Assembly (NCBI GenBank): GCA_963707215.1
Contig: CAVPPB010000001.1
Span: 704,001-768,000, forward strand
DNA: 64,000 nt
Origin: an uncultured Chloroflexia bacterium
Lineage (GTDB): Bacteria; Chloroflexota; Limnocylindria; Limnocylindrales; CSP1-4
Reading direction: 5' to 3'
Numbering within the stretch: the stretch's first letter is position 1; every line of letters starts with the position of its first letter. Positions 32,286 through 42,709 of the stretch are shown piece by piece. The translations under genes were made by a program, and so were the position numbers. The notes beneath the pieces were generated by a model. That model ran no database searches and was not told the DNA's origin. It was given only the letters and a program-made list of their open reading frames with translations.

Positions 32286-35200
32286 TCAGCCAGCGGCCAG
32301 GATCTCCCGGGCCTCGAGGAGGTCGACCGTGGCCTCGCCCTCGGTGAATGACGCCGTCACCGCTTCGAGCTCGGCGAGCCGGCCCGCTCGCTCCGCCTCG
32401 CTCGCCGAACGGCACAGACGGGTCAGCGCGCGAAGCTCCGTCATCCGCGTCTCGAGATGCCGGGCTTGGGTCAGGGCGATCCCGTAGGCGTCGATCGCGG
32501 CCGCGGATCCGGGCCCGTCCGCCGCGAGATGGAGGTCGCCCTGGAGCAGCAGCATCTCCGGCACGAGCACGGCCGGCGACTCGGGCCCGCCCATCATGGC
32601 GATGGCGGCACCGACCGGTTCGAGGCCCTCGATGGCGAGCCCGGCTCGATCGCATGCGCCGGCCTCGACGAACAGCAGCATCGGCCAGAAGACCGGCGGC
32701 GTGACGAGGCCCCGGTACGCCGTCATGCCCTCCCGGACCCGTGCCAGCCCGGCCTCCGCCTGGCCGAGCGCGGTCTGGGCCGCGCCGAGCAGGCACGACC
32801 CGATGGCCGACCAGATCCGGAACTCGTACTCGTCCGCGATCCCCAGGAGCTGCACGGCGCGGTCGCGGACCACCGCGGGCTCCCGCCGCCAGAGGTGGAG
32901 CAGGCCGGAGTGGAACTGGGCGTAGGCCGAGGTCCAGGGATGGTCGAGGCGGCGGGCCAGCTCGATCCCGGCGTCGGCCCGTTCGACGGCCCGGTCAGGG
33001 AAGCCCAACAGCCAGAGGCTGAACGCGGAGGTCGTGAGGCAGGCGACCCGGGGCTCGTTGCCGAGTCGCATGCCGACCGCCCGCGGCGGACTCGAATCGA
33101 ACAGGGCGATGGCGCCGTCCAGGCGCGCGAGCCCGTCCCGGAGCCGTCCGCTGAAGACGAACGAGGTGCCGAGCACCAGCTCGCCGTCGATCCGCATGTT
33201 CACGTCGCCCTCGGCGTCGGCGACGGCCAGGATCCGCTCCCCCAGCTCGATCCCCTTGCCGAACTCGGCCCGCAGGACGTGCAGGTTGGCAAGGCCCCGC
33301 AGGACGGAGAACTGCCCCTGGCTCTCCTGGGCCGTCTCCATGCGCTCGAGCACCCGCTCGTACGCCTGCTCGACCTCCGGGGTGAACCCGCGGGTGGCCA
33401 TGAGCGCCCGGGCCAGGCTCATCCGCAGGGCGATCTCCTGGGTCGCCAGCTCCGGGGTCGGGGCGATCCCGGCCAGGACGCCCAGCAGACCCGTGGTGAG
33501 CTCGACCGTCTCGCGGTACCAGCCGCGGGCCTCGTTGAGGATGAGCAGGCAGTCGGCGAGCCGGGTCAGCTGCTCCGGGTCGCGCTCGGCGATCCAGTAG
33601 CGCCAAGCGATCCGCAGGTTCCCCGCGTCGTGGGCCAGCGCCTCGACGACGTGGTCCCGGTGCGGCCCGCCGAGCTCGTGCTGGAGCCGCTCCGCGTGCT
33701 CCGCGTAGTGGGCAGCGTGGGTGCGACGGATGCGCTCGCCGCCCGGCCGCGCCTCGAGTCGCTCGGTCGCATACTCGCGGATCGTCTCGAGCATGAGGAA
33801 GCGAGGCTCGCCGTTCGGCTCGTCGATCTGGCGGACGAGGCTCTTCTCGATCAGCGAAGCGAGCGCCTCGATGACGTCGACGCCGGCGTCGGTGTCGTCG
33901 CTCGCCGTGGCGACGGCCTCCACGGCCGGCAGGTCGGCGTCCGCGAAGACGGAGAGCGTCTCGAACAGGCGCTGCTCGCCCGGCTCGAGGAGGCGGTAGC
34001 TCCAGTCGATCGTCGCCCGCAGCGTCTGCTGCCGCTCCGGCATGTCTCGCGCCGAACTCTTGAGCAGGTCGAGCCGGCTGCCCAGGCGGTCGCGCAGGGC
34101 CTCCGGCGAGAACAGCCGGAGACGGGCGGCCGCCAGCTCGATGGCCAGCGGCAGCCCGTCGAGCCGACGACAGATGTCGGCCACCGCGGCCGCGTTCGCG
34201 TCGGTCAGCGCGAAGTCTGGACGTGTCGCGCGAGCCCGGTCTACGAACAGCTGGACCGCCTCGGAGCGCTCCACCTGCTCGGCCGTGGCCTGCCGCAGGT
34301 CCGCCGGCGGCAGGCCCATCGGGGGCACGGGATAGACGTGCTCGGCACGGACGTGGAGCGGCTCCCTGCTCGTGACCAGCAGCTTGAGGTCGGGACACGC
34401 GTCGAGGAGCTCGGTCGTGATGCCGGCAGCGGCGGTCACCTGCTCGAAGTTGTCCAGTACCAGCAGCACCTGGCGACCGCGCAGGCGGTCGATGACGTCA
34501 CCCAGGATCGACCGGTCCGGCCCCTCGGCCACGCCGATCACCCGACCGAGGGCGATCAGCATCGCCTCCGTGTCGACCGCCGCGGACAGGTCGGCGAAGG
34601 TCACGCCGTCGCGGAAGGACTCGGCCACCTCGGCGGCCGCGTGGACGGCGAGGCTCGTCTTGCCGGTCCCTCCCGGGCCGGTCAGCGTCAGCAGGCGTAC
34701 GGCCGGATCGGCCAGGCGACGACAGATCTCGTCCAGTTCGGCCCGGCGCCCGACGAACGAGGCGGCCTGGGTCGGGAGACCGCCCGCCGCGTGGTCGAGG
34801 GTGGCGAGGGGTGGGAAGGCCTCGTCGAGATCCGGATGGACGAGCTGGAAGACGCGCTCCTGCCGGCCGAGGTCCTTGAGGCGGAACTCGCCCAGGTCCC
34901 GCAGCGCGGCTCCGTCGGCGAGCTGGTCACCGGCGAGCGCCGCGGCCGCCGCCGAGAGCAGGACCTGGCCGCCGTGGCCCGCGGCCATGACCCGGGCCGT
35001 CCGGTTGACGGTCGGCCCGAAGTAGTCGTCGCCGCGCCGCTCGGCCTCGCCGGCGTGGAGGCCCATCCGGACGCGGAGCGGACCCGTCTCGCCCCATGCC
35101 TCCCCGGCCAGCGCCCGTTGCGCGGACAGACACGCCGCCACGCCGGCAGCGACGGTCGGGAAGACGGCCATCATCCCGTCGCCGGTCGTCTTGACGACCT

Positions 35201-35363
35201 GGCCGCCCGCCCCGTCGATCGCCCCGTGGAGGATGGCGTCGTGACGGGCCAGGGCGCCGCTCATCGCCTCCGGCATCCGCTCCCAGAGGCGCGTGCTACC
35301 GGCGATGTCCGTGAACAGGAAGGCCAGCATGCCGCTCGCAGACACCGGACCCTGGGGGTTCAT
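32286..35363 (-). CDS. Class III adenylate cyclase - STAND NTPase - TPR-like protein
   Basis: FTDIAGST, VKTTGDG, DYFGPTVNRTAR (canonical K/D adenylate cyclase); Walker A GPGGTGKT, LDNFE, LDGLPLAIELAA; TATCGT 6 nt upstream. Confidence 0.9.
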   Translation of the reverse strand: MNPQGPVSASGMLAFLFTDIAGSTRLWERMPEAMSGALARHDAILHGAIDGAGGQVVKTTGDGMMAVFPTVAAGVAACLSAQRALAGEAWGETGPLRVRMGLHAGEAERRGDDYFGPTVNRTARVMAAGHGGQVLLSAAAAALAGDQLADGAALRDLGEFRLKDLGRQERVFQLVHPDLDEAFPPLATLDHAAGGLPTQAASFVGRRAELDEICRRLADPAVRLLTLTGPGGTGKTSLAVHAAAEVAESFRDGVTFADLSAAVDTEAMLIALGRVIGVAEGPDRSILGDVIDRLRGRQVLLVLDNFEQVTAAAGITTELLDACPDLKLLVTSREPLHVRAEHVYPVPPMGLPPADLRQATAEQVERSEAVQLFVDRARATRPDFALTDANAAAVADICRRLDGLPLAIELAAARLRLFSPEALRDRLGSRLDLLKSSARDMPERQQTLRATIDWSYRLLEPGEQRLFETLSVFADADLPAVEAVATASDDTDAGVDVIEALASLIEKSLVRQIDEPNGEPRFLMLETIREYATERLEARPGGERIRRTHAAHYAEHAERLQHELGGPHRDHVVEALAHDAGNLRIAWRYWIAERDPEQLTRLADCLLILNEARGWYRETVELTTGLLGVLAGIAPTPELATQEIALRMSLARALMATRGFTPEVEQAYERVLERMETAQESQGQFSVLRGLANLHVLRAEFGKGIELGERILAVADAEGDVNMRIDGELVLGTSFVFSGRLRDGLARLDGAIALFDSSPPRAVGMRLGNEPRVACLTTSAFSLWLLGFPDRAVERADAGIELARRLDHPWTSAYAQFHSGLLHLWRREPAVVRDRAVQLLGIADEYEFRIWSAIGSCLLGAAQTALGQAEAGLARVREGMTAYRGLVTPPVFWPMLLFVEAGACDRAGLAIEGLEPVGAAIAMMGGPESPAVLVPEMLLLQGDLHLAADGPGSAAAIDAYGIALTQARHLETRMTELRALTRLCRSASEAERAGRLAELEAVTASFTEGEATVDLLEAREILAAG

Positions 35364-35449
35364 CCCGTGACGATAGCCGGGCCGGGGCGTCCCGTCGCCC
35401 CGAGCGTGCGGTCGCGGCGGCGAGGCGAAGGCGCGGACGGCGCCTTCCG

Positions 35450-36067
35450 CTACTCCTTGTAGCCCGTCATGACGACGCGCGCCAGGAACGGCTCGGTGGT
35501 GATCCGGCGGAACCCCGCCGCCTCCATCGCGTCCCGGTAGTCGTCGCTGAGCACCGCGCGCCCGCCGGGCTTGAGGACGCGGTACATCTCCTTGATCGCC
35601 ACCGGCGCCTTCGATCCGTAGCAGTCCACGCAGTTGCTGGTCACGACGGTGAACGCGTCGCTCTCCCACGGCAGGGTCGCGGCATCGCCGACGACGAACT
35701 CCGCGGTCCCCGCCTCGACCCGCTCACGGTTCTGCCGGAGCGCCTCGTCGATCATCGGCTCCGACTGGTCGAGGCCGGCGATCCGTCGCACGTGTGACGC
35801 GTACTCGCGGAGGAAGACTCCCGAGCCACAGCCGACGTCGAGGACCTCGTCGTCGGGCCGAAGCTCCAGATGGCGGGCGAAGGCCGAGTAGAACCACCGG
35901 TTGAGTGGCGCGTACGTCCGAGCGATGACCCGCCCGACCGGCCCGCTCAGGAAGATCGGCTGGATCTTCTCCTCGAGCGGTTGCCAACCGCCGGCCGCGC
36001 GCACGGCCAGGCGCGTGACCACGACGATTGCGATGACCGCGACGGTGATCCTGAACATGATCGGCAT
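35450..36067 (-). CDS. Class I SAM-dependent methyltransferase with N-terminal membrane anchor
   Basis: VLDVGCGSG, GDAATLPW, RVLKPGG; N-terminal ITVAVIAIVVV; RBS GGAGG. Confidence 0.85.
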   Translation of the reverse strand: MPIMFRITVAVIAIVVVTRLAVRAAGGWQPLEEKIQPIFLSGPVGRVIARTYAPLNRWFYSAFARHLELRPDDEVLDVGCGSGVFLREYASHVRRIAGLDQSEPMIDEALRQNRERVEAGTAEFVVGDAATLPWESDAFTVVTSNCVDCYGSKAPVAIKEMYRVLKPGGRAVLSDDYRDAMEAAGFRRITTEPFLARVVMTGYKE

Positions 36068-36190
36068 GTCGACGACCTCCCTGGGACGCTTCGTTGGCAT
36101 GGCGCGGGCTGGGAGCCTCGGAGCCGGCCGATCGCCGCGAGCGTGGCCTGTCCGAGTCCCTGCCTGGTGCTACTCCTGGGACGCCACGGC

Positions 36191-36270
36191 GGCGGGTCGG
36201 TCTCGCCAGTGGCTCGGCCCGGTCCGGTACGGCGGCCGTGGGCTCGGACCGTGCGTCGGCGCCCCCCGTG
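36191..36270 (-). ncRNA. c-di-GMP-II-like riboswitch aptamer, copy B
   Basis: GGGG-GGC-GCCGAC-GCACGGUCCG..CGGCCGC..CGGACCGGGC-CGA-GCC-ACUG-GCG-AGA-CCG-ACCC; 3' core identical to copy A. Confidence 0.72.
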
Positions 36271-36516
36271 CACGTCGGTCAGGGTGCGGTCATAGGACGC
36301 ACGGGTCCAGAGGCCAAGGGCCTGAACGGACCGAGGCAGCCCGAGGGTCAGTCGGCGGTGCCCAGCGGCGGGAGGCTGGCAAGCGGACCATCCGGCCGGG
36401 ATCCTGCCAGCTCGGGCGACGTCGCGGTCGGTCCCCGGATCGGGCCGACCGGGCCTTCCCTCGGGCTTGCCGAGCCGCCATCATCCGCCCAGCGTGCCGC
36501 CACGGAGGTGACGAGA

Positions 36517-37551
36517 GTGGAGACAGGTTCCGGGCCGACGGTGTTCGACCACATCCCCAAGGTCGAGCTGCACTGTCACGTGGAGGGGACCGTCCGGACG
36601 TCGACGGTCGTCGAGCTGGCTCGACGGGCCGGCCGGCCGCTCCCTGCCGCGGACCCGGAGGACCTCTACCGCTACGACTCGCTCGACTCGTTCCTGGCCG
36701 TCTTCTGGCTGATCCAGGAGCTCCTCGCCACGCCCGAGGACTGGGCCCGGATCGCCTACGAATCGCTGGTGGACGGGGCCGCCCACGGCCTCCGCTATCG
36801 CGAGATGTTCTTCACCCCGGCCCGCCACCTCGCCGCCGGCCAGGACCTCGGCGGGATCGTCACCGGCCTGACCCAGGGCATCGAGGCGGCCGAGGCGGAG
36901 ACCGGCGTCCGCTGCCGGCTCATCGCCGCGATGGACCGCGCCTACGGGCCGGCGGCGGGCCTCGAGCTCGTCGAGCGGCTCGCTGAGCTTCGGCGGTCCG
37001 ACACTGCGGAGCGGGTCATCGGGGTCGGCGCCGACTCGACCGAGCTGGGCGTGGACATGCGGGCGTTCGCCCCGGCGTACGCCGCGGCCGGCCGCTCTGG
37101 GCTGCGCCGGACCTGCCACGCCGGCGAGGCCGTCGGCGTCGGGCCGGAGAACATCCGGATCGCCATCGACGACCTCGGTGCCGAGCGGATCGACCACGGC
37201 GTGGCCATCGTCGAGGACGACGCGCTCCTCGCCGAGGTCGCCGACCGCGGCATCCCGCTGACGGTCTGCCCGACGAGCAACGTCATCATCGCCAATCGGT
37301 TCGGCTCGCTCGAGGAGCACCCGTTCGACCGGATGCGGGCCGCGGGGCTCCTGCTGACGATCAACACCGACGACCCGGCCATGGAGCGCCTCGACCTGGG
37401 CCTGGAGTACGAGCGGGTCGCCGCCGCCTACGGCTGGTCAGCAGCCGAGATGGGCCGCGTGGCGGTCGAGGGGATCGCCTCGACCTGGCTCGACGAGACC
37501 GACCGGGCCGCCCTGACACGCGAGTTCGAGGTGGCGCTGGCCTCGCTCTGA
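36517..37551 (+). CDS. add: Adenosine/adenine deaminase
   Basis: PKVELHCHVEG, HAGE, ERIDHG, CPTSN, NTDDP; GGAGG upstream of GTG. Confidence 0.88.
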   Translation: METGSGPTVFDHIPKVELHCHVEGTVRTSTVVELARRAGRPLPAADPEDLYRYDSLDSFLAVFWLIQELLATPEDWARIAYESLVDGAAHGLRYREMFFTPARHLAAGQDLGGIVTGLTQGIEAAEAETGVRCRLIAAMDRAYGPAAGLELVERLAELRRSDTAERVIGVGADSTELGVDMRAFAPAYAAAGRSGLRRTCHAGEAVGVGPENIRIAIDDLGAERIDHGVAIVEDDALLAEVADRGIPLTVCPTSNVIIANRFGSLEEHPFDRMRAAGLLLTINTDDPAMERLDLGLEYERVAAAYGWSAAEMGRVAVEGIASTWLDETDRAALTREFEVALASL

Positions 37552-38030: not shown

Positions 38031-39167
38031 TCAGGCGGGCGGATCCTCGTCGAGGAAGTGGCGCAGGCTGCCGCGCCAGAGGGCCCGCCCGTGGAACGAG
38101 ACCCCGGGACCGATGGCGGTCGGGCCGCCGTACCAGATGAGCGTCTTGATGAGCGGGGTCATCTGCGAGCCGTAGAGCTCCATGCAGCGCTCCGGCTGGA
38201 CGCCGGGCCACGAGTAGCAGGAGACGACCGTCCGGCGATGGTCGTTCGGGATCCCCGGGGGCAGGCGGTCCCAGGCGGGGTCGTCCGGTCCGAACTCCCA
38301 CTGGTCGAGGTTGCCCTGGGGGATCCCCTCGATCCCGCGGACGACCGGCGGATCGTCGTCGAGCAGGTACGGGTCGACCGCCAGGTCGCAGACGATCGCG
38401 TGGGGCGGCAGCAGCCCGAGCCAGGCGTTCGGGAAGAGTGGCTTCGAGGTGTCGCGGCGGGCCGTGGCGTCGACGAGGATGTCGGTCAGGGCCAGGCGAT
38501 GGCGGAAGTAGGCCTCGTTGCCGGCCAGGTTCCGCTCGGCCACGACGACCTCGACGCCGGGCAGGCCCTCCCGCATGAGCCGCGCGTTGCGCTCCTCGTC
38601 GCCGGCCTTGGTCGCCCACTCGATGGCGAACTTGCCGACCCCGCCGGCGCCCAGGATCGTGACGCTCACCGGCGGCCGCCCGGCGGAGAGGAGCGGCGGC
38701 CAGCGGCGCTCGAGGGCGATGAACGCCGCCTCGAGGCCGTTGCGGGCCACGTCGCGCAGGTTCTGGACCAGCCGACGTCCGTCGTCCCCGGTGACCATGT
38801 CGATGGCGATCGCCTCGATGCCAAGGCGCCGGAGCAGCTCCACGCGCTCGGGCCGCGTGTTGAAGTGGAGCATCGAGAGGAGGATGGCCCCGGGCCGGAG
38901 GAGCTCGTACCGACCCTCCGGGGCCCGGAGCACGACGACGATCTCCTGAGCGTAGGCCGTCGCCTCGTCGACGATGTGGACCCGCGGCGACACGGCCCGG
39001 TAGTCGTCGTCCGAGTACCCCATGCCCAGGCCGCTGCCGGCCTCGACGAAGACGTCCACCTCGAGGTCGGCGAGGAGCCGCATCAACGACGGCAGGAAGG
39101 CCCGCCGTTCGCCGGGCTCGTTGTACATCCGCGGGAAGCCGATCGTCAGGTGACGCTCGTTCGTCAT
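38031..39167 (-). CDS. Alanine dehydrogenase/PNT-family oxidoreductase (carboxyethyl-ornithine synthase-like)
   Basis: IGFPRMYNEPGERR, VEAGSG, SMLH, ILGAGGVG, DLAVDP. Confidence 0.78.
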   Translation of the reverse strand: MTNERHLTIGFPRMYNEPGERRAFLPSLMRLLADLEVDVFVEAGSGLGMGYSDDDYRAVSPRVHIVDEATAYAQEIVVVLRAPEGRYELLRPGAILLSMLHFNTRPERVELLRRLGIEAIAIDMVTGDDGRRLVQNLRDVARNGLEAAFIALERRWPPLLSAGRPPVSVTILGAGGVGKFAIEWATKAGDEERNARLMREGLPGVEVVVAERNLAGNEAYFRHRLALTDILVDATARRDTSKPLFPNAWLGLLPPHAIVCDLAVDPYLLDDDPPVVRGIEGIPQGNLDQWEFGPDDPAWDRLPPGIPNDHRRTVVSCYSWPGVQPERCMELYGSQMTPLIKTLIWYGGPTAIGPGVSFHGRALWRGSLRHFLDEDPPA

Positions 39168-39358
39168 TCGGTGCCCCTGTCCTCCGCCATCCGGTCCGAC
39201 CGGTCGCCCGGAACGATGAGAGCATCGCATCGCCGGGGCCAGTGCGCTTGGTCGGTTTTCGACGGACCGAGGAGGGGCCTGCAACCGGCGCAGCGACCGC
39301 GTGTCCCCCGGCGACCTGCGGGTGCCATGCTCCCTTGACCCGTCCGTAGAATGCTCCG

Positions 39359-40723
39359 ATGGACCCCCTGGCGATCGTCGTCGTCTTGTTGCTCGTGGCC
39401 GTCGCGATCGTCGCGGCCGTCGCCGGGTGGTACCTCGGACGGCGCCGCCGGGCGCCCGCTCAGGAACCCGGCCCTGCGACCGAGCTGCGCCGGCTGGAGG
39501 AGTACGAGTCCTACCCGTTCACGACCGACGCGGCCGGCCACGTCCATTTCGATCCCGACGGGTTCGACGTCGCCGTGGGGCACTTCCTCGAGGAGCGCAA
39601 CCCTCGGGCGGCCCGTGAGCTCATCGTCATCGGCGAGCAGAACCTCGTCCGCGATACCTTCCCGACCGACCGGCTGAGCCGCTACAAGGCGCTCTACGCC
39701 GCCTACGACGGCGACGCCGTCGTGTCCGACAACGATGAGTTCCTGGAGAACTACCGGCGGATCGTCAACCAGGTCGGGCGGTCGTTCCCCAACACCGGCA
39801 TCGAGATCCTCCTCCACAACCTGGTGAACCCATCGCGGTCGCTGGTGGCGATCGAGAACGCCGCCGTCACCGGGCGCTCGATCGGCTCCGGGGCGACGAA
39901 CCTGGTCCTGGACCTCAAGACGCGCCGGCAGCGCGGCGAGGACAAGGTCAACTACGAGCTGAACATCGGCTCGCGCCAGTTCAAGTGCACGACGATCCCG
40001 ATCTTCCGAGCCGACTACGGCCTGGTCGGGGCGATCTGCATCAACATCGACACGCGGTTCATGCGCGAGTACGTCATGCAGAGCGAGGAGCGGCTGAACG
40101 CCTTCTTCGACAACCTCCTGCGGACCGACTTCCAGCTCGGCGAGAACATCCTGTCGAAGGACGAGTACACGAGCGCCCTCAACGGCAAGCGTCACTTCCT
40201 CGACGAGGCGATCCGGACCGGCAGCGGGAGCCAGGCCGGCCGGCGGCTTGCGGCGATCTTCTTCTCCGACATCGTCGGCTACACGACCCTGATGGGCGCC
40301 GATGAAGCCGGGACGATGCGGATCATCAGCACCAACGAGCAGATCCACCGGGCGGCCCTGGGGCGCCACCGGGGCCACCTGATCCAGGAGCTCGGCGACG
40401 GGATGCTGGCGAGCTTCGGGAGCGCGTCGGACGCCGTCGCGGCGGGCCGCGAGGTCCAGCGGGCGGTCGGCGAGGACGGCCGCTACCAGGTCCGGGTCGG
40501 CATCCACCTCGGTGAGGTCACCCAGGACGGCGCAAAGGTCGTGGGCGACGGGGTCAACATCGCGGCCCGGATCCAGGCCGAGATGGGACCGGGAGAGATC
40601 GGCATCTCGGGCGTCGTCTACGACAACGTCCGGAACAAGGAGGGCGTCTCGGCCGCGCCGCTCGGCGAGCGCGTGCTCAAGGGCGTCGCCGATCCGATCG
40701 TCCTGTACTCGGTGGCCGTCTAG
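39359..40723 (+). CDS. Membrane-anchored YheO-like PAS (PAS_6) - class III nucleotide cyclase
   Basis: N-terminal TM; EILLHNL..SLVAIEN..VTGRSIG..KCTTIPI..GAICINID (PAS_6); FSDIVGYT, QELGDG, GIHLG, GDGVNIAAR; TAGAAT 6 nt upstream. Confidence 0.85.
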   Translation: MDPLAIVVVLLLVAVAIVAAVAGWYLGRRRRAPAQEPGPATELRRLEEYESYPFTTDAAGHVHFDPDGFDVAVGHFLEERNPRAARELIVIGEQNLVRDTFPTDRLSRYKALYAAYDGDAVVSDNDEFLENYRRIVNQVGRSFPNTGIEILLHNLVNPSRSLVAIENAAVTGRSIGSGATNLVLDLKTRRQRGEDKVNYELNIGSRQFKCTTIPIFRADYGLVGAICINIDTRFMREYVMQSEERLNAFFDNLLRTDFQLGENILSKDEYTSALNGKRHFLDEAIRTGSGSQAGRRLAAIFFSDIVGYTTLMGADEAGTMRIISTNEQIHRAALGRHRGHLIQELGDGMLASFGSASDAVAAGREVQRAVGEDGRYQVRVGIHLGEVTQDGAKVVGDGVNIAARIQAEMGPGEIGISGVVYDNVRNKEGVSAAPLGERVLKGVADPIVLYSVAV

Positions 40724-40762: not shown

Positions 40763-42709
40763 CTACGCCTCGGCGATGACGCCGATCGAGACCTTGAAGC
40801 CGGCCCGCCGCTGGAGCGTCGGCATGAGGGTGCCCTGGCCGACCGGGGTATCACCGGGGAACCAGCGGATCCACTCCCCGTTGAAGTCCTCGAACTCACC
40901 GGGGTCACGGAGCGACCAGGACGCCCAGACGACCTTGTCGAGCGAGCTGCCCTCGGCCTCGAGCTTGGCCTTGAGGTTCCGCATGCACTGGGCGGCGTGC
41001 TCCTTGATGCCGCCGTTGATGACCCGGCCGGTGTCGGGGTCGACCGGGCCCATCGAAGTGACGTAGATCATCCCGCCGGCCTTGACCGCCTTGCCATGGC
41101 CCACCACGAGCCGGGCCACCTCGGGCGGGGGCGGCGCCTCGCCGGTGATCCAGCGGCTCTTGCCGGCCGGGGTGGGGTTCTTCGGATCCTCGGGCGGGAT
41201 GCCGAACTCGCCGGGCGGCAGCTGGATGCCCCGCTGCGTGAAGCGCGGCATGAAGGTCGGCCGGGCGCCCGTCGGCACGAGGTCGCCCTGGACCTTGCCA
41301 TCGACGAACCCCGTCTGCTGGTACTCGAAGATGTCCTGCATGAGGATCTCGTCGTCCTCGATCCCGTAGACCTCGGTGATGTTGACGATCTTGCGGGAGC
41401 CGTCCTTCAGGCGAGCGGTGTGGACGATGAGGTCGACGGCGGCCGCGATCTGCTCGCGGATGGAGCGGAGCGGCAGGTCCACGCCGGCCATCAGGACCAT
41501 CGTCTCGAGGCGGCGGAGCATGTCGGCCGGGGTGTTGGCGTGGCCGGTCGAGAGCGAGCCCTCCTGGCCGACGGTCATCGCCTGGAGCATGTCCAGCGCC
41601 TCGCCCGCGCGACACTCGCCGACGATGATCCGGTCGGGCCGCATGTGGAGCGAGTTCCGCAAGAGGTCGCGGATGGTGATCTCGCCGAGTCCCTCCAGGT
41701 TCGGTGGACGGGCCTCGAGGGTCACGACGTGCTCCTGGTCGAGCTGGAGCTCGGCGGCGTCCTCGATCGTGATGATCCGCTCCTCCTCGGGGATGAACGA
41801 CGAGATCACGTTCAGGGTCGTCGTCTTGCCGGAGCCGGTGCCACCGGAGACGAAGACGTTGAGCTTCGCCTCGACGCAGGCCCGCAGGAGATCGAACATC
41901 TCCTCGGTCGCCGTCCCGAAGCCGACGAGGTCCTCGACGGTGTACGGGGTGGCCGAGAACTTCCGGATCGTGATGACCGGGCCGACGAGCGACAGGGGCG
42001 GGATGATCGCGTTGACCCGCGAGCCGTCGGGAAGCCGGGCATCCACCCGCGGGCTCGACATGTCGATGCGGCGGCCGATCGGGGTCACGATCCGGTCGAT
42101 GATCCGCAGGACGTGCTCGTCGTTGAGGAAGCTCCGGGGGACCCGCTCGATCTTGCCCTTGCGCTCGATGTAGATCTGGTCGGGGCCGTTGACCATGACC
42201 TCGGTGATCGTCTCGTCGGCGAGGAGCGGCTCGATGGGCCCGAGCCCGCCGATCTCCCCGACCAGGTCCTGGACGAGGCGGCGTCGCTCGTCGCCGGTGA
42301 TGGCGAAGCCGTTCTCGCGGACCAGCCGGTCGACGATGCCCTCCATGCCGGTCTGGACGTCGGCCGCGTCGGCACCCAGCAGCGAAGTGGCGGCGCGGCC
42401 GATCTCCTCCTGCAGCCGCATGCGGATCGAGCGCATGAGCTCTTCCCGGGCGACCGCCTGGGCAGAGGCCCGGGCCGACGGCGGTGCCGATGGGGGTGCG
42501 GTCGGCCGAGCGACCGGGACCGGCTTCGTCGCCGTGGCGGTACTCGAGGGAAGCGTCGGCTCGTCGGGGCTCTCGACGACGGTCGCGGCCGGCTCGTCGG
42601 CAGGAGGAGCGGCCGGCGCCGCCGGCTCCTGGCCGTCCGACTCTTCGAGGCCGGCCTCCCGGGCCGCGGCTTTGCGCTGGGCCGCTTCGACCCGCTTCAG
42701 CAGGGACAT
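40763..42709 (-). CDS. TadA/CpaF family pilus-assembly ATPase with C-terminal Rid (YjgF/RidA-like) domain
   Basis: GLGPIEPLL, VDARLPDGSRVN, GGTGSGKTT, IEDAAEL, MRPDRIIVGECR, STGHAN; C-terminal AVKAGGMIYVTSMGPVDP..NLKAKLEAEGSSLDKVV..VSIGVIA. Confidence 0.88.
   Translation of the reverse strand: MSLLKRVEAAQRKAAAREAGLEESDGQEPAAPAAPPADEPAATVVESPDEPTLPSSTATATKPVPVARPTAPPSAPPSARASAQAVAREELMRSIRMRLQEEIGRAATSLLGADAADVQTGMEGIVDRLVRENGFAITGDERRRLVQDLVGEIGGLGPIEPLLADETITEVMVNGPDQIYIERKGKIERVPRSFLNDEHVLRIIDRIVTPIGRRIDMSSPRVDARLPDGSRVNAIIPPLSLVGPVITIRKFSATPYTVEDLVGFGTATEEMFDLLRACVEAKLNVFVSGGTGSGKTTTLNVISSFIPEEERIITIEDAAELQLDQEHVVTLEARPPNLEGLGEITIRDLLRNSLHMRPDRIIVGECRAGEALDMLQAMTVGQEGSLSTGHANTPADMLRRLETMVLMAGVDLPLRSIREQIAAAVDLIVHTARLKDGSRKIVNITEVYGIEDDEILMQDIFEYQQTGFVDGKVQGDLVPTGARPTFMPRFTQRGIQLPPGEFGIPPEDPKNPTPAGKSRWITGEAPPPPEVARLVVGHGKAVKAGGMIYVTSMGPVDPDTGRVINGGIKEHAAQCMRNLKAKLEAEGSSLDKVVWASWSLRDPGEFEDFNGEWIRWFPGDTPVGQGTLMPTLQRRAGFKVSIGVIAEA

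Follow-up and report, generated by a model that had tools for sequence, protein, structure and literature searches.

In adenylate cyclases, recognition of the base is described as involving two residues, a Lys that bonds N1 and an Asp that bonds the N6 amine (PMC4215837). In guanylate cyclases (GC), the Glu in first position is reported to bond N1/N2, with the second residue intended to engage the carbonyl or to provide shape (PMC7384201), the general rule being Glu first, followed by Cys, Ser, Thr, or Gly (PMC4215837, PMC7384201). E/G is given as the base pair of the bacterial GC Cya2 (PMC4215837). PfPucC is also reported to produce 3′,5′-cGMP, and in its AlphaFold 3 (AF3) model Glu118 and Lys195 occupy the sites that K497 and D566 hold in an engineered rhodopsin adenylate cyclase (bioRxiv 10.64898/2026.08.12.744502). 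As for sensor domains of the YheO type (PAS_6), PAS6-helix-turn-helix (HTH) is described as the commonest of just five PAS6 architectures, linkage of yheO to L-PSP genes is reported, and no stimulus or ligand is reported for any PAS_6 domain (PMC4519771). Here, we describe a gene that joins these two modules, located in a 64,000-nucleotide stretch of DNA from an uncultured Chloroflexia bacterium (GenBank assembly GCA_963707215.1, contig CAVPPB010000001.1, positions 704,001 to 768,000; hereafter the window). Its product is a predicted membrane-anchored PAS_6 sensor fused to a class III cyclase domain, in which the usual Lys/Asp (K/D) pair is replaced by Gln/Lys (Q/K), and its base preference may have shifted away from that of its relatives.

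The whole gene occupies positions 39359..40723 of the forward strand and comprises 454 codons and a TAG stop; its start and stop codons were checked, and it matches the called protein P0001 at 100%. At the N-terminus lies a transmembrane (TM) helix (residues 3-29, 39365..39445, +), supported by its hydrophobic sequence and by a helix in the AlphaFold2 (AF2) model. It is followed by RRRR, and the GRR motif is retained in the family consensus. By the positive-inside rule, an established basis for membrane topology, the protein downstream of this helix would be cytoplasmic. Next comes an N-terminal helical domain (approximately residues 45-128, 39491..39742, +), which in the model of the sensor half consists of a β-hairpin and four helices packed against the PAS core, and then the YheO-type PAS_6 itself (residues 129-236, 39743..40066, +; PF08348, 69.8 bits against a cut-off of 27, E 2.3e-19). 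A linker (residues 237-293, 40067..40237, +) carries a helix motif conserved in the family consensus, ENILSKDEY..ALNGKRHFLDEAI, and leads to the catalytic domain, a compact class III cyclase (residues 294-454, 40238..40720, +), in which Guanylate_cyc (PF00211) matches residues 299-447 with 30.9 bits against a cut-off of 21.9. PAS_6 and Guanylate_cyc were the only families found in a Pfam scan of the 454-residue protein, and a C-terminal HTH was not found.

The full-length AF2 model has a mean predicted local distance difference test score (pLDDT) of 84.1, which falls below 50 within the linker at residues 257-263 and 272-292. The cyclase domain is further supported by phmmer matches in the PDB to 3mr7, Rv1900c, and Ma1120. 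With Foldseek, the cyclase part of the model superposes on Ma1120 (entry 5d0h_A) with a TM-score of 0.94 and a root mean square deviation (rmsd) of 1.2 Å and on Rv1900c with a TM-score of 0.91, the rmsd being 1.2-1.6 Å over the two. A sequence-only reading of the window had proposed the order TM helix, unknown domain, PAS_6, and cyclase, and this architecture is borne out by Pfam and the AF2 model.

The catalytic residues of the cyclase domain are intact. Both metal-binding residues, D304 in the FSD motif (codon GAC, 40268..40270, +) and D347 in the GDG motif (codon GAC, 40397..40399, +), are Asp in 120/120 aligned rows, and D304 is invariant in alignment A1. The transition-state pair of the VNIAAR motif extends from N400 to R404 (40556..40570, +; codons AAC at 40556-40558 and CGG at 40568-40570), with Asn in 119/120 and Arg in 120/120 rows. 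At the first base-selecting position, canonically Lys, stands Q343 (codon CAG, 40385..40387, +), and at the second, canonically Asp and seven residues before N400, stands K393 (codon AAG, 40535..40537, +). In HMMER alignments to solved cyclases, Q343 aligns with the Lys of 3mr7 and Ma1120 and with the Asn of Rv1900c, while K393 aligns with the Asp of 3mr7, Ma1120, and Rv1900c, seven residues ahead of the Asn position. This equivalence does not depend on any single alignment, since the same two columns are mostly Lys and Asp in the family alignment as well: among 173 K/D-type clusters, column 343 is K in 165 and R in 8, and column 393 is D in 171 and E in 2. The sequence-only reading had stated that the metal Asp residues and the N/R pair were intact and had assigned Gln and Lys to these two codons; the former holds on direct codon check, and the latter is confirmed by codons and alignments together. 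The pair departs both from the adenylate cyclase rule, having Q343 for Lys and K393 for Asp (or Thr/Ser), and from the GC rule, with Gln first and Lys second. A third pocket position specific to the lineage is V395 (codon GTG, 40541..40543, +), which is His in most K/D members.

Across the family, the base pair was scored in 207 clusters, with the result K/D 163, Q/K 16, E/G 15, R/D 8, K/E 2, and broken or partial 3. A similar survey of 59 locus-derived open reading frames (ORFs) gave K/D 45, E/G 4, R/D 3 plus one broken, Q/K 2, D/G 1 (L052), and partial 3. The recurrence of Q/K in 16 distinct 90% clusters, which are 75-92% identical to the query, rules out chance or sequencing error. In a FastTree phylogeny of 171 rows with SH-like support, the 18 Q/K rows (the 16 clusters plus L002 and L003) fall into a clade with 97% support that also contains P0024 (K/D/F), and no further sequence, and lies deep within the K/D rows. 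Two sub-lineages can be distinguished by the third position, Q/K/Q with 4 rows and Q/K followed by V, L, M, or I with 14 rows. Judging from the tree, Q/K is a derived state that arose inside K/D sequences. It had been considered that homologues with K/D would reduce Q/K to a private mutation or a misalignment; most homologues do have K/D, but the Q/K pair defines a conserved clade and is neither of these.

The positions that set this clade apart were sought among all 454 query positions, a column being taken as diagnostic if the Q/K clade shares ≤5% of residues with the 152 K/D-type rows. Only residue columns 343, 393, and 395 are diagnostic, together with three gap columns (14-16) in the TM region, and no column of the sensor half qualifies. 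At column 395, the 152 K/D-type rows have H in 129, F in 10, Y in 8, and R in 3, while the Q/K clade has L in 8, Q in 4, V in 3, M in 2, and I in one row. The E/G sequences form a separate clade in the FastTree phylogeny, with 99% support and nested among K/D/F rows; against 173 rows, its diagnostic columns are 343, 345, and 393, with the changes K to E, L/M to Q, and D to G, respectively, plus column 326. Because the diagnostic columns are confined to 343/393/395 in one case and 343/345/393/326 in the other, two independent lineages within a single orthologous family have altered the base pocket and essentially nothing else. Members of the E/G clade are likely guanylate cyclases. They comprise L043, L046, L048, L055, and P0271-P0308 (15 clusters), with the motif LLEEQGDG ... 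GGVFGDGVN, and their clade-specific Gln lies at column 345, two residues ahead of the second metal Asp. The R/D variant, with Arg for the canonical Lys at column 343, has at least four origins on the tree.

The extent of the family was assessed by several searches. A word-indexed protein search gave 7228 matches among 8000 scored, and among the best 120, which have 65-100% identity, PF08348 and PF00211 are both present in 119; the sole exception, P0117, is frameshifted after the GDG motif. An exhaustive phmmer search of 1.84 billion 50%-identity representatives yielded 45,921 matches at E ≤ 0.001. Among the best 150 of these, just one (P0121, 65% identity) covers the whole protein and the others are fragments or cyclase domains only, so the PAS_6-cyclases make up one tight family. 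A search seeded with an E/G member retrieved 414 clusters at E ≤ 1e-100. When a single genome was taken for each species (185,579 species), relatives are encoded at 60 loci, almost all of which lie in metagenome-assembled genomes labelled Acidimicrobiia or Actinomycetota. On the other hand, 400 other genomes sampled from the class of the window contain no full-length match at E ≤ 1e-60 (with 4 candidates scored per genome), and a query with the sensor half had no match in 400 other genomes sampled from its phylum. A literature search for YheO plus cyclase returned no paper on such a fusion, as judged by title or abstract. Altogether, the PAS_6-cyclases appear to be an undescribed, functional-looking family of sensor cyclases. 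One divergent member on a long branch (L052:8001-9329, 54% identity) reads D/G at the base-selecting pair and, as in Rv1900c, has His in place of the Asn (LAVHIGARI).

L002 and L003 are the two Q/K orthologues with DNA, and comparison with the window gene by the Nei-Gojobori method gives dN/dS values for the cyclase domain of 0.157 (L002) and 0.147 (L003), and for the sensor half of 0.090 and 0.096, respectively, with dS between 0.55 and 0.64 overall and between 0.56 and 0.64 for the cyclase domain. By these ratios, the cyclase domain is evidently under purifying selection, and the branch lengths of the Q/K clade in the FastTree phylogeny are not inflated. The window genome (G000; 3.26 Mb, 5 contigs, 84.8% complete) has 15 cyclase domains, one of which belongs to a PAS_6-cyclase, and one copy is likewise present in each of two other Q/K genomes (G401 and G402) and of three E/G genomes. 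With one copy per genome checked, the variant pocket has replaced the canonical form and was not added beside it. A duplicated, neofunctionalised paralogue was considered and rejected for G000, G401, and G402, each of which has a single copy. Among the other cyclases of G000, the base positions are K/M in eight and K/L in one (EKFIGDAV ... G[ML]V[AT]GDLVNTA), Q/R at C3:1300828, D/K at C2:235818, and H/G and N/E in one each.

A possible scheme for the protein can be outlined as follows. One N-terminal TM helix would anchor a cytoplasmic sensor made of the helical N-domain on the YheO-type PAS_6, and the conserved helical linker would couple this sensor to the compact class III cyclase domain, which by analogy with its family would act as a homodimer arranged head to tail, with two active sites at the interface. 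The usual pocket of the family, Lys/Asp/His, is the adenylate cyclase signature, and in the lineage of the window it became Gln343/Lys393/aliphatic 395, a pocket that displaced the old form and has since been kept under purifying selection. Gln343 could accept the N1-H/N2-H hydrogen bonds of guanine and Lys393 could donate to O6. The same PAS_6 input would in this way control a second messenger other than that of the K/D relatives, and the cNMP-binding proteins of the genome, which has 9 cNMP_binding domains, may read the new messenger. PfPucC supports a shifted product in that it provides a precedent for Lys at position 2 with guanine. Overall, our preferred explanation, to which we assign roughly an even chance, is that the sensor cyclase is functional and has changed its base preference, most likely in favor of GTP (cGMP) or of dual or relaxed purine use. 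A product other than cAMP is plausible, and its case is strengthened by a pocket rewrite that is clade-specific, limited to three columns, and kept under purifying selection.

A number of points weigh against this explanation, and several of them favor an enzyme that is still an adenylate cyclase, with Gln donating to N1, Lys contacting N7 or water, and the substitutions tuning kinetics or regulation and not the product. The contacts of Q343 and K393 with the base are inferred from alignment only. Gln is not equivalent to Glu and is also able to act as a hydrogen-bond donor towards adenine N1. On the drawn FastTree tree, Q/K needs two changes, or one if only the starred branches are enforced, and the tree is compatible with a single origin. 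Furthermore, the 143 nearest cyclase-domain representatives include 89 with K/D and 54 without it (K/E 11, D/R 8, G/T 6, G/N 4, E/R 3, D/K 2, and Q/N 2, among others), and Q/K itself occurs in 0/143. The rarity that had been presumed for non-canonical pairs was therefore overrated, and because such pairs are common in the compact cyclase type, Q/K alone is weak evidence for a new product. An acid or amide first and a base second is a recurring theme in this type. Automatic database names also label the family "class 3 adenylate cyclase", and the sensor half, having no clade-specific column, implies an unchanged input. Rv0386 has what we take to be a Q/N pair, likewise with Gln first. It is reported as an adenylate cyclase with only 20% GC side activity (PMC4452763). 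Two-residue rules also predict poorly, as engineering of Ma1120 shows: K101E/D157G gave the enzyme its best GC activity and still left it ATP-preferring (kcat/Km 1.92 versus 0.29 ×10^6), D157H reduced both activities, and the authors conclude that each cyclase must be studied on its own merit (PMC4215837). The enzyme could still make cAMP. On the other hand, placing Lys close to the adenine N6 amine would cause an unfavorable donor-donor clash, the changes affected all three pocket columns together and no other column, a sister lineage within the same family switched to the known GC pair E/G, and a cGMP-making cyclase with Glu/Lys at the equivalent positions has been reported (bioRxiv 10.64898/2026.08.12.744502). 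With these points on both sides, continued adenylate cyclase activity is a serious possibility that we nonetheless rate clearly below an even chance.

Two further possibilities appear much less probable. It had been suggested that the enzyme, by analogy with Pycsar, may make a pyrimidine or other non-standard cyclic nucleotide (cCMP, cUMP, or cIMP), and there is indeed a weak PADLOC match to PycC (E 8.7e-5, 19.8 bits); Lys and Gln are also reported among the base-selecting residues of EaPycC (R142/Q144) and AnPycC (K104) (PMC11224242). However, this score probably reflects generic class III similarity over the cyclase core, no TIR or TM effector gene is adjacent (the neighbors are an AlaDh-like gene and a T2SSE/L-PSP ORF), and the gene is conserved, sensor-coupled, and single-copy and does not lie in a defense island. 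Pycsar pockets are, moreover, described as restrictive, with bulky residues that occlude purines (bioRxiv 10.64898/2026.08.12.744502), while here His395 has given way to a smaller aliphatic residue. As the published pockets also use other residues, the Pycsar analogy proved weak, and we consider such a product improbable. Still less probable, and in our view very unlikely, is a catalytically dead domain that serves as a nucleotide-binding or dimerisation module. Loss of the canonical base-binding pair would fit this idea, but D304, D347, N400, and R404 are retained by every Q/K member, the dN/dS of the cyclase domain is 0.15-0.16, and the branches of the clade are not inflated.

The sensor half, on the input side of the proposed signaling route, shows stronger conservation than any other part of the protein, its mean column identity being 78% over 52 sequences. 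Modeled on its own (residues 40-262), it folds as a single unit with a pLDDT of 87.4 and a predicted TM-score (pTM) of 0.82. The N-terminal helical domain has no Pfam match and contains many invariant columns. Fold searches with the sensor, which barely cover the N-terminal helical part, recovered generic PAS/LOV domains only (Foldseek E ~1e-4; best VIA Z 8.4 over model residues 85-194), and look-alikes in the atlas search were PAS_6 clusters only. Two Cys residues of the PAS core, C210 (39986-39988, FKCTT) and C227 (40037-40039, AICIN), show no variation among 71 family members and also occur in a stand-alone sensor from Bacteroidota; their conservation hints at a cofactor, metal, or redox site. 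This stand-alone protein (L061:7998-8837, +; Christiangramia gaetbulicola) has 279 residues with the TM helix, N-domain, PAS_6, and linker and without an output domain, is 50% identical to query residues 1-285, and retains the linker motif in part. In addition, a metagenome protein of 555 residues (P0123) joins the sensor half, 67% identical to residues 40-299, to an AAA ATPase in place of the cyclase; it is a single representative and may come from a chimeric contig.

With regard to genomic context, the neighbors of the cyclase gene are an AlaDh_PNT-like gene in divergent orientation (38031..39284, -) and a convergent ORF (40763-42700, -) lying 40 bp from the cyclase gene's end. The latter combines a CpaF/T2SSE ATPase (residues 152-428 of 645 translated) with an L-PSP (RidA-family) domain (537-643) in a single frame with no stop between them, which may represent a true fusion or a lost stop. 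Upstream lies an adenosine deaminase (36094-37551, +), in which A_deaminase covers residues 155-476 of a 485-residue ORF; the Pro/Gly/Ser-rich N-terminal stretch is probably due to an upstream start call and not part of the real protein. A large cyclase (32289..35669, -), with Guanylate_cyc at residues 115-269 followed by a STAND/NB-ARC-type NTPase, has the canonical K/D pocket; this neighbor had been cited for comparison, and it is real and K/D, although its coordinates had been given without a strand, which is minus. None of the AlaDh-like, adenosine deaminase, methyltransferase, CpaF, and RidA/L-PSP neighbors of the window was found by tblastn beside any of the 60 related loci (0/60), and an L-PSP profile (four G000 domains) had no match within 4 kb of any of them. 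All-against-all clustering of flanking ORFs revealed no neighbor family common to more than 10 of 59 loci. A conserved operon, or a ligand hint from context, was accordingly rejected for want of recurring neighbors. Since the neighbors of the window recur at none of the 60 loci, the idea that the protein senses an amino acid or an imine, put forward in the sequence-only reading, is left without comparative support. A scan found 0 promoter-like sites and two terminator-like sites inside the coding region, the latter probably by chance.

A broader interpretation is that the family constitutes a natural output switch on a near-invariant sensor, each orthologue using one of at least three codes (K/D/H, E/x/Q..G, and Q/K/aliphatic), with Q/K as a new guanine-selecting or non-cAMP/non-cGMP code; we hold this only tentatively and think it rather unlikely as a whole. 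Engineered conversions of adenylate to guanylate cyclases through mutation of the two specificity residues mostly gave poor or mixed enzymes (PMC4215837). If the interpretation were true, three substitutions would suffice to rewire one sensory input from cAMP to another messenger, and the Q/K code would resemble the Glu/Lys pair found in PucC, which makes cGMP. The family offers a clean natural experiment, with orthologues 60-90% identical, one copy in the six genomes checked, an unchanged sensor, and three alternative pocket codes that differ at three or four columns only. It could show which residues suffice for base choice and whether Gln/Lys is a second bacterial solution for GTP, and it would give PAS_6 an easily assayed enzymatic read-out. 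If the enzyme makes only cAMP, it would be an ordinary sensor adenylate cyclase with an unusual pocket.

Among known systems, the closest solved relatives are Ma1120 of Mycobacterium avium and Rv1900c (LipJ) of M. tuberculosis (E 7e-15 and 3e-15, same fold), whose cyclase domains we take to be of class IIIc. Both share with the window protein the compact catalytic domain, the metal Asp pair, and the Arg, and both are without a PAS_6 sensor and a TM anchor. Ma1120 differs in having K/D at the base positions and Ala for Asn, and Rv1900c in having aligned N/D and His at the Asn position. The equivalog for the bifunctional lipase/adenylate cyclase LipJ (NF058673) scores 75.5 bits against a cut-off of 800, and only with the cyclase part. 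Rv0386 of M. tuberculosis resembles the window protein in that its cyclase domain is fused to signaling modules, but it has an AAA-ATPase/LuxR architecture and the mainly adenylate cyclase activity noted above (PMC4452763). The regulators of the YheO/Cj1387c type (PAS_6 plus HTH; HTH_22 in the YheO/DauR type) have the PAS_6 sensor in common with the window protein, which differs in its cyclase output in place of HTH and in its extra TM helix and N-terminal helical domain. The reported linkage of yheO to L-PSP (PMC4519771) is seen at 0/60 family loci, though the window itself has an L-PSP domain in the ORF 40 bp downstream. Cya2 of Synechocystis is a bacterial class III cyclase with both base positions rewritten and cGMP as its reported product (PMC4215837), and its pair recurs in the E/G clade inside the window family; it differs from the window protein in having E/G instead of Q/K and is a weaker match (2w01, E 3e-4; fold rank 44). 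PfPucC, a defense cyclase of the Pucsar antiphage system, is paired with TIR or TM effectors and is without PAS_6, and its contacts with the base are known from an AF3 model and not from an experimental complex structure (bioRxiv 10.64898/2026.08.12.744502). Matched by the published equivalence of positions, it has the carboxyl-type Glu at position 1 where the window protein has its amide, Gln, and at position 2 both have Lys.

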